From: Eledone cirrhosa
Taxonomy: Eukaryota
Length of the DNA stretch: 64,000 bases
NCBI GenBank assembly: GCA_964016885.1
Contig: OZ024741.1
Span: 90,458,001 to 90,522,000 of the forward strand
Direction of reading: 5' to 3'
The translations under genes and the position numbers were made by a program. Positions within the stretch are counted from its first letter, which is position 1; the number at the start of each line of letters is the position of its first letter. The notes beneath the pieces are model-generated. The model was not told the DNA's origin and made no database searches. It was given only the letters and a program-made list of their open reading frames with translations. This document shows positions 14,421-57,485 of this stretch, piece by piece.

Positions 14421-15205
14421 AATATTCTCCTATGGTCTAACGATTTCGTCATCAACCTTGTAATAATAATGATTATTATTTCCTCTATAGTAGTAGGTCG
14501 TATACTGTGAGTATATAATGTTTATGTGTCAGTCATTTGTGACAATTGGAGGCCAAATGGCTTCTCTTAGGGAAAGAAGAAACCAGTTCGTGGAATCCAG
14601 CTGAAGCCTACCTCAATGTTTTCGAAAACATCGACGACGTCTATTATTTTGGTGTCAAAATAAAACTCGGAGCCATGTAATTTTATAAATTGTTTTCCTA
14701 AGTAATTAATATAAACTTCCTTCAATTGGATTTTTCGTTGGCTTCCACTCTTAATTGGTACACAGGTCTGTGATTAAAGGAAAAGATGAATAGCAGAACA
14801 GAACTAATTACTTCAATATGAATAGAACATTCTAAAAATTAATATTCCATATAATATATTTTCTTCGATATCGCTAAATATAATATAGTATTATATGTTA
14901 TTCTATTCAAAATTTGTTTTAAGAAATAATTATTTTCAATAACTTTCAGTAAAAAAATAAAATAAAGAATGTTGCCATTGTTTTGTTTTTGTTACTATAA
15001 ACGTTACTTATTTTCTGTCACAATTTCATCGTCTTATTTTTTATTTTAGTTTGATTGTTTTAGGCTAAAGTAAAAATAAAATAACATTATTGTTATACTT
15101 TGGGAGAGTCATGTTACCAATAAAATCACACGCACCTGTTGGTTTTCACTTCAATTTATTATGAATTTCCGGAAATGCATAGTCTGCAAGTTAAGCCCTC
15201 CAATT

Positions 15206-15520
15206 AACTGCAAAACTAGGAACGTAGTATATAGCATAAGATACACTGAGAGACAGTGTAGGAATAAGAATATAACATACATAGGTGAAACAGCCCGTAG
15301 CATAGGAGAAAGGATAAGTGAACACTAGCGAGAACTTCAGGATGGGAAAAACTCATCAGTACTCCACCAACAGCCCAAAATAAAAGATAATTAGAGAACA
15401 AAATAGAAGACATTAGAGAACATAGAGATAAAAATCATATCCACACACAATGCTCAGGAAAATCACAGAGGCAACAAATATAAACTCCAACCAAAATTAA
15501 ACAGAAAATATGACTGGAAT
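15206..15520 (+). pseudogene. Penelope-type GIY-YIG endonuclease remnant
   Basis: The frame from 15206 reads NCKTRNVVYSIRYTERQCRNKNITYIGETARSIGERISEH*RELQDGKNSSVLHQ: VVY..YIGET.R...R..EH signature with in-frame stops. Confidence 0.8.
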
Positions 15521-25351: not shown

Positions 25352-25422
25352 ATAATATACATAGAGAGAATAATATATATTCTATATATATATATATATA
25401 TATATAATATACATAGAGAGAA

Positions 25423-25610
25423 TAATTGTTTCTACTTTTGGCACAAGGCCAGCAATTACCCAGTGTATTACTGGTACTTTATTTTATCGACCCCGTAAGG
25501 ATGAAAGGCAAAGTCAACCTCGGCGGGATTTGAACTCAGAATGGCAAGGGCCGTAACTCTATGCGTCAAAGCATGGCGTCCGACCCTCTACCGATACTGC
25601 CAATCCACCG
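25423..25610 (-). mobile_element. tRNA-derived SINE, full length
   Basis: The reverse complement has A-box TGGCAGTATCGG, B-box GAGTTCAAATC, a conserved core and a GTAGAAACAATTAT tail. Confidence 0.85.
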
Positions 25611-26073: not shown

Positions 26074-26125
<52 letters not shown>

Positions 26126-26235
26126 TATAGACATAGAATATTCTGTATGTTTATAATAAACATTTTGAAGACCTAATCGCTATAGAATAGAATACGTCAC
26201 GTATTACAATTAGATTCTCGATAAAAGCAAGGGAA

Positions 26236-28138
26236 GTAATCTACGCGTTTCATTCTTGTTAGAATTCATCAGGACTACATATCCAGTGCTTTTATCGAGA
26301 ATGACACAGCTAGAGACTTATAGAATACTTAGCTGTGTACTGGAACTGGTTTGAAAGAGCGGTTGCCGGTCCGGCAGAAATTAGAAATTGGAATAAATGC
26401 TCTGAAATAGCGATATATATGTGAGTATAGACATAGAATATTCGAAAATATTCTGTATGTTTATAATAAACATTTTGAAGACCTAATCGCTATAGAATAG
26501 AATACGTCACGTATTACAATTAGATTCTCGATAAAAGCAAGGGAAGTAATCTACGCGTTTCATTCTTGTTAGAATTCATCAGGACTACATATCCAGTGCT
26601 TTTATCGAGAATGACACAGCTAGAGACTTATAGAATACTTAGCTGTGTACTGGAACTGGTTTGAAAGAGCGGTTGCCGGTCCGGCAGAAATTAGAAATTG
26701 GAATAAATGCTCTGAAATAGCGATATATATGTGAGTATAGACATAGAATATTCGAAAATATTCTGTATGTTTATAATAAACATTTTGAAGACCTAATCGC
26801 TATAGAATAGAATACGTCACGTATTACAATTAGATTCTCGATAAAAGCAAGGGAAGTAATCTACGCGTTTCATTCTTGTTAGAATTCATCAGGACTACAT
26901 ATCCAGTGCTTTTATCGAGAATGACACAGCTAGAGACTTATAGAATACTTAGCTGTGTACTGGAACTGGTTTGAAAGAGCGGTTGCCGGTCCGGCAGAAA
27001 TTAGAAATTGGAATAAATGCTCTGAAATAGCGATATATATGTGAGTATAGACATAGAATATTCGAAAATATTCTGTATGTTTATAATAAACATTTTGAAG
27101 ACCTAATCGCTATAGAATAGAATACGTCACGTATTACAATTAGATTCTCGATAAAAGCAAGGGAAGTAATCTACGCGTTTCATTCTTGTTAGAATTCATC
27201 AGGACTACATATCCAGTGCTTTTATCGAGAATGACACAGCTAGAGACTTATAGAATACTTAGCTGTGTACTGGAACTGGTTTGAAAGAGCGGTTGCCGGT
27301 CCGGCAGAAATTAGAAATTGGAATAAATGCTCTGAAATAGCGATATATATGTGAGTATAGACATAGAATATTCGAAAATATTCTGTATGTTTATAATAAA
27401 CATTTTGAAGACCTAATCGCTATAGAATAGAATACGTCACGTATTACAATTAGATTCTCGATAAAAGCAAGGGAAGTAATCTACGCGTTTCATTCTTGTT
27501 AGAATTCATCAGGACTACATATCCAGTGCTTTTATCGAGAATGACACAGCTAGAGACTTATAGAATACTTAGCTGTGTACTGGAACTGGTTTGAAAGAGC
27601 GGTTGCCGGTCCGGCAGAAATTAGAAATTGGAATAAATGCTCTGAAATAGCGATATATATGTGAGTATAGACATAGAATATTCGAAAATATTCTGTATGT
27701 TTATAATAAACATTTTGAAGACCTAATCGCTATAGAATAGAATACGTCACGTATTACAATTAGATTCTCGATAAAAGCAAGGGAAGTAATCTACGCGTTT
27801 CATTCTTGTTAGAATTCATCAGGACTACATATCCAGTGCTTTTATCGAGAATGACACAGCTAGAGACTTATAGAATACTTAGCTGTGTACTGGAACTGGT
27901 TTGAAAGAGCGGTTGCCGGTCCGGCAGAAATTAGAAATTGGAATAAATGCTCTGAAATAGCGATATATATGTGAGTATAGACATAGAATATTCGAAAATA
28001 TTCTGTATGTTTATAATAAACATTTTGAAGACCTAATCGCTATAGAATAGAATACGTCACGTATTACAATTAGATTCTCGATAAAAGCAAGGGAAGTAAT
28101 CTACGCGTTTCATTCTTGTTAGAATTCATCAGGACTAC
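26236..28138 (-). ncRNA. Seven type I hammerhead ribozymes (43 nt each, starting at 26236, 26546, 26856, 27166, 27476, 27786, 28096)
   Basis: Minus strand reads GUAGUC-CUGAUGA-AUUCU(AACA)AGAAU-GAAA-CGCG-UA-GAUUAC. Confidence 0.9.
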
Positions 28139-28416
28139 ATATCCAGTGCTTCCCTTGCTTTTATCGAGAATCTAATTGTAATACGTGACGTATTCTATTC
28201 TATAGCGATTAGGTCTTCAAAATGTTTATTATAAACATACAGAATATTTTCGAATATTCTATGTCTATACTCACATATATATCGCTATTTCAGAGCATTT
28301 ATTCCAATTTCTAATTTCTGCCGGACCGGCAACCGCTCTTTCAAACCAGTTCCAGTACACAGCTAAGTATTCTATAAGTCTCTAGCTGTGTCATTCTCGA
28401 TAAAAGCACTGGATAT

Positions 28417-29389
28417 GTAGTCCTGATGAATTCTAACAAGAATGAAACGCGTAGATTACTTCCCTTGCTTTTATCGAGAATCTAATTGTAATACGTGACG
28501 TATTCTATTCTATAGCGATTAGGTCTTCAAAATGTTTATTATAAACATACAGAATATTTTCGAATATTCTATGTCTATACTCACATGTATATCGCTATTT
28601 CAGAGCATTTATTCCAATTTCTAATTTCTGCCGGACCGGCAACCGCTCTTTCAAACCAGTTCCAGTACACAGCTAAGTATTCTATAAGTCTCTAGCTGTG
28701 TCATTCTCGATAAAAGCACTGGATATGTAGTCCTGATGAATTCTAACAAGAATGAAACGCGTAGATTACTTCCCTTGCTTTTATCGAGAATCTAATTGTA
28801 ATACGTGACGTATTCTATTCTATAGCGATTAGGTCTTCAAAATGTTTATTATAAACATACAGAATATTTTCGAATATTCTATGTCTATACTCACATATAT
28901 ATCGCTATTTCAGAGCATTTATTCCAATTTCTAATTTCTGCCGGACCGGCAACCGCTCTTTCAAACCAGTTCCAGTACACAGCTAAGTATTCTATAAGTC
29001 TCTAGCTGTGTCATTCTCGATAAAAGCACTGGATATGTAGTCCTGATGAATTCTAACAAGAATGAAACGCGTAGATTACTTCCCTTGCTTTTATCGAGAA
29101 TCTAATTGTAATACGTGACGTATTCTATTCTATAGCGATTAGGTCTTCAAAATGTTTATTATAAACATACAGAATATTTTCGAATATTCTATGTCTATAC
29201 TCACATATATATCGCTATTTCAGAGCATTTATTCCAATTTCTAATTTCTGCCGGACCGGCAACCGCTCTTTCAAACCAGTTCCAGTACACAGCTAAGTAT
29301 TCTATAAGTCTCTAGCTGTGTCATTCTCGATAAAAGCACTGGATATGTAGTCCTGATGAATTCTAACAAGAATGAAACGCGTAGATTAC
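28417..29389 (+). ncRNA. Four type I hammerhead ribozymes (28417-28459, 28727-28769, 29037-29079, 29347-29389)
   Basis: GTAGTC-CTGATGA-ATTCT(AACA)AGAAT-GAAA-CGCG-TA-GATTAC: canonical core, GUA triplet, palindromic ACGCGU stem III. Confidence 0.9.
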
Positions 29390-29987
29390 TTCCCTTGCTT
29401 TTATCGAGAATCTAATTGTAATACGTGACGTATTCTATTCTATAGCGATTAGGTCTTCAAAATGTTTATTATAAACATACAGAATATTTTCGAATATTCT
29501 ATGTCTATACTCACATATATATCGCTATTTCAGAGCATTTATTCCAATATATATATATATATATTATATATATGTATATATATGTATGTATGTATATATG
29601 TATAGGTATAGAAACAAAAATATATAAAAAGAATCACTACACCAGTAGTCGACGCATGTTACAGTTCTTCTCTGACTACACATGTACAGAGATGATATCA
29701 TTTTGACATTGATGAAAGATGATCTTGGACAATGTTGCTAACAGTGAAATAAACTCGCCCACCAAACCACTTTCTGACTCTCACTCACCACCCTATATAT
29801 CGCTTTGATTGTTCATTTATTTATTTTTCAGGATTTCTTCTTGTGAGAAGTTAATCTAAATATGTAGGAGTGAGTATATGTAAGTGTATAGGTACACTGC
29901 ATAATTATGTATATATGTGAATATGTGCGTTTACAAACACATACAATGATACACCCAGACAGGCTGATACACACACATTATATTTAC

Positions 29988-30178
29988 GGCGGTGATTTGG
30001 CAGTATCGGTAGAAGGTCGGACGCCATGCTTTGACGCAAAGAGTTACATCCCTTTACGATCTGAGTTCAAATCCCGCCGAGGTTAACTTTGCCTTTCATC
30101 CTTACGGGGTCGATAAAGTAAAGTACCAGTAATGTACTAGGTAATTGCTGGCCTTGTGCCAAAAGTAGAAACAATTAT
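29988..30178 (+). mobile_element. tRNA-derived SINE, full length
   Basis: GGCGGTGATTTGGCAGTATCGGTAGA (A-box) ... GAGTTCAAATCCC (B-box) ... core ... GTAGAAACAATTAT. Confidence 0.85.
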
Positions 30179-30594: not shown

Positions 30595-30664
<70 letters not shown>

Positions 30665-30666
<2 letters not shown>

Positions 30667-30890
30667 AACGAGTAGGACCCCGACGGCTGAGCTCAAGCCG
30701 TTTCGACGGCTAATTCTGGAGTCCAGAATTAGCCGTCGAAACGGCTTGAGCTCAGAGAATTAGCCGTCGAAACGGCTTGAGCTCAGCCGTCGGGGTCCTA
30801 CTCGTTGCTATTACCCACTCTACTACCCTAAGTATTGAGTACTTTGGTGCATTATGGTCTATCTGGTTCCGTACCACATTTCCTTCGTTA
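30665..30890. repeat. GC-rich fold-back repeat (second copy 36405-36620, opposite orientation)
   Basis: GTAGGACCCCGACGGCTGAGCTCAAGCCGTTTCGACGGCTAATTCTGG and its reverse complement, embedded in (TA)n. Confidence 0.8.
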
Positions 30891-56212: not shown

Positions 56213-57480
56213 TGAAACAAAATGAAAACGAAATTTCATTTCTCACTCTTAGTATGGCACTTACAGATGGGTAAACGGTGCTGATGATAGCTAACAAGCT
56301 TGAAACTAGTACATCGTTCCTGTGTCAGTGTTGAACAAAAAGGTGACGTGGTTGCCTTAACACCGTATGGCATAAATTCAGGCTGTTCAGTTTGTTTACA
56401 AACGAACAAAGCGACGTTAGCGCCGCTAAACTGATACGTGCATATATGTATGTGTACCTGTATGCATATGTATGTATATATGTATATATATATATATATG
56501 TGCATGCTACTGTACGTCTGTATACATATATGTATGTACGTATACATGCATACTTACATTTAAGTAAGTGCCATACTAAGAGTGAGAAATGAAATTTCGT
56601 TTTCATTTTGTTTCAATTTATCGTTTTCGGTATGCCTGACCGATTTAACTCACTCAATATGCAAATTAGGCTGCTCAGCCGTTAATTTTCATAAGGAAAG
56701 TATATACTTTCGAACGTTCAACTATCTGGCAGATGGGTAAACGGTGCTGATGATAGCTAACAAGCTTGAAACTAGTACATCGTTCCTGTGTCAGTGTTGA
56801 ACAAAAAGGTGACGTGGTTGCCTTAACACCGTATGGCATAAATTCAGGCTGTTCAGTTTGTTTACAAACGAACAAAGCGACGTTAGCGCCGCTAAACTGA
56901 TACGTGCATATATGTATGTGTACCTGTATGTATATATGTATATATATATATATATATGTGCATGCTACTGTACGTCTGTATACATATATGTATGTACGTA
57001 TACATGCATACTTACATTTAAGTAAGTGCCATACTAAGAGTGAGAAATGAAATTTCGTTTTCATTTTGTTTCAATTTATCGTTTTCGGTATGCCTGACCG
57101 ATTTAACTCACTCAATATGCAAATTAGGCTGCTCAGCCGTTAATTTTCATAAGGAAAGTATATACTTTCGAACGTTCAACTATCTGGCAGATGGGTAAAC
57201 GGTGCTGATGATAGCTAACAAGCTTGAAACTAGTACATCGTTCCTGTGTCAGTGTTGAACAAAAAGGTGACGTGGTTGCCTTAACACCGTATGGCATAAA
57301 TTCAGGCTGTTCAGTTTGTTTACAAACGAACAAAGCGACGTTAGCGCCGCTAAACTGATACGTGCATATATGTATGTGTACCTGTATGCATATGTATGTA
57401 TTTATGTATATATATATATATATATGTGCATGCTACTGTACGTCTGTATACATATATGTATGTACGTATACATGCATACT

Positions 57481-57485
<5 letters not shown>
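56210..57485 (+). mobile_element. Tandem array of ~460-bp HHR-bearing units (~2.7 copies) with an inverted 5' stub
   Basis: HHR cores at 56281, 56747 and 57205 (periods 466 and 458). 56210-56263 is the reverse complement of 56566-56619. Flanked by (TA)n. Confidence 0.88.
56274..57242 (+). ncRNA. Three type I hammerhead ribozymes (56274-56318, 56740-56784, 57198-57242)
   Basis: AACGGUG-CUGAUGA-UAGCU(AACA)AGCUU-GAAA-CUAG-UA-CAUCGUU: 7-bp stem I, palindromic ACUAGU, GUA triplet. Confidence 0.88.

Follow-up and report, generated by a model that had tools for sequence, protein, structure and literature searches.

The stretch of DNA studied here (the window; 64,000 nucleotides from Eledone cirrhosa) contains an array of two back-to-back arms of a 310-nt hammerhead repeat, of 6.5 and 4.5 units, which meet via the trinucleotide CTT (Table 1). 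The whole insertion consists of monomer sequence bounded by (TA)n flanks; neither an open reading frame (ORF) of 180 codons or more nor LTRs were found over the arrays. Phases are numbered from the predicted cleavage site, +1 being the G after GTA at window position 28454. Arm A extends from an inner end at +6 to an outer end at +165, the first fixed end of the family, and arm B from an inner end at -50 to an outer end at +130, the second fixed end. The outermost unit of arm B has a 10-nt deletion.

Table 1. Features of the two-armed hammerhead array, in window coordinates
Feature	Position	Strand	Remarks
(TA)n target, left side	26075..26122		
Arm B	26122..28151	-	2030 nt, 6.5 units of the 310-nt monomer, sense on the minus strand
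Palindrome spacer, 52 nt	28097..28148	-	Innermost hammerhead of arm B; core 28102-28132
CTT microhomology, inversion junction	28149..28151		Overlap of inner ends -50 and +6
Arm A	28149..29548	+	1400 nt, 4.5 units
Complete type I hammerhead with 16-bp stem extension	28393..28481	+	Core 28423-28453
(AT)n target, right side	29547..29604		

An earlier, sequence-only reading of the window had described a palindrome of about 1.4 kb whose spacer is essentially one hammerhead, a plus arm that begins about 5 nt past the predicted cut, and a CTT microhomology at the edge of the 16-bp stem. These details were confirmed: the palindrome arms lie at 26692-28096 and 28149-29553 with 52 nt between them, the spacer core was found on the minus strand, arm A begins at +6, and the CTT lies 3-5 nt inside the ribozyme-side edge of the left arm of the stem. 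With ends at +6 and -50, a spacer of one hammerhead follows from the geometry. The predicted cuts fall after 28453, 28763, 29073, and 29383 in arm A, and between 28102 and 28101 in the spacer hammerhead. An inverted pair of 189 nt (25422-25610 and 29990-30178; 92% complementary) also flanks the array, and is probably two copies of a dispersed repeat.

A descriptor search found 11 type I hammerhead motifs in the array. The motif consists of stem I (GUAGUC/GAUUAC), the core (CUGAUGA and GAAA), a palindromic helix III (ACGCGU), and the 16-bp stem extension, in which 28393-28408 pairs with 28466-28481 (fold z -6.65). The match to Rfam HH9 was weak (23 bits, E 0.059, under the gathering score of 52). 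No array-wide variant was seen at the 12 catalytic core positions in 129 arrays. The period of 310 nt, in 6.5 and 4.5 copies, is within the tandem-unit range of non-LTR retrozymes (about 170-400 nt), and the family is dispersed, with at least 1346 insertions recognized genome-wide by their outer-end patterns. The window array is likely one insertion of a young, protein-free non-LTR retrozyme, predicted from its motifs to be self-cleaving. Non-LTR retrozymes, their circles, and their link to Penelope-like elements (PLEs) have already been published (Cervera and de la Pena 2014, PMC4209133; Cervera and de la Pena 2020, PMC7229834; Li et al. 2026, bioRxiv 10.64898/2026.07.22.740005).

Other hammerhead repeats were also observed. 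A second tandem family occupies window positions 56264-57485 (period about 458 nt; motifs at 56281, 56747, and 57205), and a hammerhead of a third family lies at 35-65 on the minus strand. Related hammerhead repeat families with 68-83% identity were found at L160:2440-2870 and in the flanks of L017, L064, L098, L119, and L132; the L160 copy is likewise inverted, and its end corresponds by homology to about +165. Among public sequencing runs, 20 (17 studies, 18 organism codes) contain about half or more of the words sampled from window 27840-28460, and one 340-nt contig of run X4, from another organism code, spans the whole unit. The runs listed as containing the unit included none of RNA. A near-identical unit is possibly widely shared among organisms.

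Inner ends and the predicted cleavage site

In the 3.0-Gb genome assembly surveyed (G000), 1067 outer ends lie exactly at +165 and 279 at +166 to +168. We sampled 180 other insertions, namely the first 20 listed arrays, the first 100 of the 1067 exact +165 ends, and the first 60 of the 279 ends at +166 to +168, and called the junctions against the own unit of each array. Divergent inversions were found in 164 of the 180 insertions; the other 16 (11 single-armed, three running into N, and two extending past the fetched stretch) were outside the junction counts.

If the ends of arrays were set by the ribozyme, as the sequence-only reading had proposed, the ends and junctions should cluster at the cleavage site across arrays. 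They were scattered instead: none of the 328 inner ends is at +1, one is in +1 to +6, and six are in +1 to +10 (10.6 expected). For the A arms, which have the outer end near +165 and are the window's type, the count in +1 to +10 is one of 164. In the 157 untruncated arrays, +10 was reached 779 times by A arms, with a single stop in +1 to +10, and 719 times by B arms, with five stops; arms traverse up to 21 cleavage sites without stopping there. None of the 11 single-arm insertions with a determined start begins at +1 to +10. A genome-wide pattern for arms starting exactly at +1 gave 62 matches, mostly substitutions at -1 inside arrays; some six of the matches represent genuine inner ends (two in L189 and those in L195, L197, L198, and L199, with L196 left out), and a uniform spread would also give about six by a hand estimate.

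The inner ends are not perfectly uniform (chi-square p 0.0002). An excess was seen at +11 to +20 (24 ends vs 10.6 expected; 16/220, then 8/108), in a bin picked post hoc on the pooled data. The bin partly coincides with the 3' strand of the 16-bp stem (+13 to +28), and the excess amounts to about 4% of the ends. The availability of microhomology fails to explain this excess. An enrichment of B-arm inner ends around the cut in the first set (23/110 in -8 to +22; scan p 0.02) was dropped, as a retest fixed beforehand on new arrays gave 2/54 (5.4 expected).

A random junction has an inner end in +1 to +6 with a probability of 3.8%, so that some 50 of the at least 1346 insertions are expected to look like that of the window. 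The inversion point is indeed next to the predicted cleavage site, but this closeness is no more than that expected by chance. Because the joins are scattered in the sister arrays while the two outer ends are fixed, the position of the window's join near the predicted cut is most likely a coincidence.

In rare cases, copying does run off at the cut (L189, L195). Both sub-monomer arms of L189 end exactly at +1, L195 joins at +1 across the hammerhead, and L249 has two sub-monomer arms both ending at +14. From their sequences, L189 and L249 look like copies of a cleaved linear monomer, and would support the predicted position of the cut. Such cases are rare and short, unlike the window's multimer.

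Several other observations concern the cut position. At L190:294-6760, an insertion with both arms ending at +1 adjoins a retrozyme arm fused to inverted reverse transcriptase (RT) pieces of a PLE-like element, and an identical 5-nt junction filler recurs three times. L191-L194 have a changed cut-position base in all units of both arms (GTT twice and GTG twice, the latter in L192 and L193); according to the hammerhead rules, GTG at the cut site should not cleave. An array-wide insertion of 1 nt at +2 was seen in 15 of the 129 arrays.

Outer ends, joins, and the template of the arms

The outer ends are fixed. The A-arm outer end is at +163 to +169 in 17 of the 18 inverted arrays not selected for that feature, and the B-arm outer end is at +126 to +139 in 155 of 157 arrays, at or beside a ATATATAT run able to pair with the target. 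Each of them is the 3' end of a sense copy and points away from the junction into (TA)n, and the offset between them is 26-39 nt. The longer arm is A in 85 and B in 72 of the 157 arrays; as either arm may be the longer, self fold-back is excluded. Arm lengths correlate (rho 0.26), and their distribution is not exponential.

Filler is present in 36 junctions. Among the 128 junctions without filler, 73 have a microhomology of 2 nt or more, compared with 18% at random; thus, the joining through microhomology that had been read from the CTT of the window is also seen in the family. The phase difference of the two inner ends is evenly spread, junctions that span the hammerhead are not enriched (4/164 vs 3.8 expected), and hairpin-type junctions are at the chance level. 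The L121 junction contains a filler of 54 nt similar to a short dispersed repeat, which is also present at window 30664-30825.

The two arms have a haplotype in common in 65 of 77 and in 41 of 45 arrays (chance, 11%), and all units are identical in 53 of 129 arrays, among which there are 44 haplotypes. We considered 'private' variants as proof of copying from one molecule; the two that were tested are subfamily marks (9 arrays; 233 matches), and the shared haplotype therefore shows only a common source. Haplotypes are mixed in three of 98 arrays (L082, L110, and L111), which means that more than one template is sometimes used.

The L228 array (G000:C1:380304683-380313083) differs from the window's unit by 14 changes, all of which are A>G on the sense strand and identical in all six full units across both arms. 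Two L228 marker motifs gave nine genome matches each, all nine in L228. A>G changes are read as A-to-I editing on the basis of established ADAR chemistry. We infer from the sequence that L228 arose by editing of one monomer and then repeated copying from both sides, which would need a circle; the alternative is a source array absent from the assembly. Array-wide variants include more A>G than T>C changes (24 vs 8; single-unit variants, 10 vs 19; Fisher p 0.002), but we do not claim a general A>G excess, as 12 of the 24 come from L228 alone, leaving 12 vs 8. No peak of reverse-transcription errors was found at the ligation site among 127 single-unit differences in 900 units.

Possible origins of the two-armed arrays

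The layout observed comprises divergent arms that pass many cleavage sites, two outer ends at fixed positions in (TA)n, inner ends that are scattered, microhomology of short length, and one unit haplotype in both arms. By analogy, the two-armed layout is that of twin or dual priming (PMC2837659). We consider it probable that the arms of this non-LTR retrozyme were written by a borrowed Penelope-type RT from both cut (TA)n strands, likely round one RNA circle, with the join falling near the predicted cut by coincidence. Multimeric transcripts would self-cleave at GUA^G, and the monomers would be circularized. Priming would then occur on one target strand at about +165, and on the second strand at the AT-rich +126 to +139, which lies 26-39 nt farther down the path of the enzyme. 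Both enzymes would lap the circle over a variable distance; the cDNA 3' ends would anneal via 0-6 nt (CTT/AAG in the window) or join with filler, and each cDNA would then template the second strand of the other. The window locus is probably one example of such a twin-primed, circle-templated insertion.

The sequence-only reading had taken the junction as the mark of a self-cleaved RNA 5' end followed by fold-back or a template switch. For the window locus, such a run-off with the loss of 5 nt would account for the start of arm A at +6, and the rare arrays ending exactly at +1 (L189 in both arms, L195, L197, L198, and L199) as well as the twofold excess at +11 to +20, which could be run-off plus trimming, are in its favour. 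We nevertheless find it quite unlikely here, and it is refuted as a general rule: the inner ends are scattered with no excess at +1 to +10 (6/328; A arms, 1/164), the B-arm excess failed its retest (2/54), and hammerhead-spanning junctions (4/164) are as frequent as expected. In addition, a cDNA ending at +6 could fold back over about 1150 nt at most, whereas arm B is 2030 nt long and has its own fixed outer end; the reverse fold-back would need a chance stop at +165, the commonest end in the family. A different template, namely long, linear, largely uncleaved multimeric transcripts of source arrays used in twin or dual priming, with circles only occasionally founding subfamilies, is unlikely, but less so than the run-off. 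It accounts equally for the same outer ends and scattered joins, and subfamily variants common to several arrays, mosaic arrays, arrays of over 25 units, and arrays with GTG at the cut site all exist. A linear multimer would be edited unit by unit, however, and the 14 A>G changes of L228 recur unchanged in each full unit of its two arms, with no source array in the assembly; moreover, 53 of the 129 arrays are unit-identical, yet have 44 haplotypes among them, and the fixed internal start at +165 becomes no easier to explain.

For the inverted junctions of Penelope, it has been proposed that a palindrome or hairpin allows self-priming, on an antisense template or cDNA (Arkhipova et al. 2013, PMC3846280); in the window family, such self-priming would be guided by the 16-bp stem. 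The join of L064 is in exact register through this stem and the junctions of L249 and L189 are palindromic, but the evenly spread phase difference, the chance level of hairpin-type junctions, the lack of a stable DNA fold in the cDNA strand of the window spacer (z 0.67), and the two distinct fixed outer ends, which it leaves unexplained, make it very improbable. Even less credible is an inversion made by local DNA events (unequal crossing-over or replication fold-back) or by a read or assembly chimera, although amplification by unequal crossover has been offered for retrozyme arrays (Li et al. 2026) and the window junction is known from the assembly alone. The two arms have different lengths, outer phases, and flanks, which those of a mirror chimera would not, 164 of the 180 insertions are inverted, and the microhomology is non-random, all of which agrees with the earlier preference for retrotransposition over unequal crossing-over. 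Contigs of the public runs X1 and X2 hold other minus-to-plus unit joints (15 of the 18 listed). The window junction itself is unbridged among the listed pieces of X1, X2, X3, and X5 (149 further pieces lie beyond the listing), which is evidence neither way.

Relation to Penelope-like elements and other known systems

The insertions have two features of Penelope-mobilized sequences: an inverted 5' copy with an offset of 26-39 nt at one end, and a position in (TA)n, within which any target site duplication would be hidden. Penelope insertions have a tail of 30-40 bp at one end together with an inverted 5' copy (Craig et al. 2021, PMC8557442), and a tail of 31 bp has also been given (PMC3846280). 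As the offset matches the 30-40 bp tail, we count it for a Penelope-type mechanism, and with inversion in 164 of the 180 insertions the parallel with inverted pLTRs drawn in the sequence-only reading is well founded.

The genome contains 150 listed matches to GIY-YIG elements. Comparison of the monomer with the coding parts of 30 of these 150 loci gave no significant DNA similarity and no shared pLTR; a related non-coding repeat lies near one of the 30. In L190, inverted pieces of a PLE-like element, whose ORF of 1216 codons is rich in asparagine, are fused to a retrozyme arm; this suggests that both RNAs were used in one event. The ORF as a whole has no Pfam match, and a partial RVT_1 match is weak (E 3.4e-5, below the cut-off); we call it PLE-like from our reading of its motifs. 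The monomer has no significant DNA similarity to this element either. A fragment at window 15170-15448 is 59% identical to the C-terminal part of the same ORF.

The coincidence at the cut site is itself of little weight, being at chance level, but the test that it prompted was useful. Whether retrozyme arrays originate as multimers at insertion or by later unequal crossover is stated to be open (bioRxiv 10.64898/2026.07.22.740005), and so is the origin of the inverted ends and tail of Penelope (PMC8557442; PMC4209133; PMC3846280). The genomic evidence for a circular template is that the ends ignore the cleavage site and that one monomer, apparently edited, is repeated in both arms. We lean towards the wider view that Penelope-type integration is twin-primed by rule: two RTs would start at two fixed points of a single circular RNA, separated by about 30 nt, and run round it, so that one step would yield the tandem copies, the inverted pLTR, and the tail of 30-40 bp on one side; A-to-I edits of a single circle would be written into the germline as new subfamilies; and cleaved linear monomers would be a rare side template giving short arms ending at +1. 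With over a thousand fresh insertions and two exact start points, the family offers a clear prediction for an in vitro assay. Whereas retrozymes, their circles, and the PLE link were known already, no report of two-armed inverted retrozyme arrays with two fixed ends, or of Penelope twin priming, was found in the literature searched, which covered few subscription journals and no supplements; arrays of this kind may appear in the supplementary figures of PMC7229834 and the 2026 preprint.

In the sections of the published descriptions cited above, metazoan non-LTR retrozymes resemble the present family: they are dispersed arrays of non-coding tandem units (170-400 nt), every unit carries a type I hammerhead whose helix III is short and palindromic, and the genomes are rich in GIY-YIG elements. 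Only head-to-tail tandems are described there, whereas the present family has two-armed inversions in 164 of 180 insertions and two fixed outer ends in (TA)n. Expression of circles was demonstrated for the former and is a prediction for the present family. Endonuclease-bearing PLEs similarly have an inverted, 5'-truncated copy beside a sense copy, a one-end tail of 30-40 bp, a preference for (TA)n, and a hammerhead in the repeat; the window family differs in having no ORF and many units per arm. Circular templates have been proposed for PLEs (PMC4209133). The self-priming model for Penelope (PMC3846280) expects palindromic junctions, and those of the window family are not consistently palindromic. 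In the twin or dual priming of L1 (PMC2837659), both target strands likewise prime cDNA, giving two inverted parts with their 3' ends outward. The two cDNAs of L1 copy different parts of one linear mRNA, whereas both arms of the window family copy the same unit over many laps, and their second start is fixed at 26-39 nt from the first.
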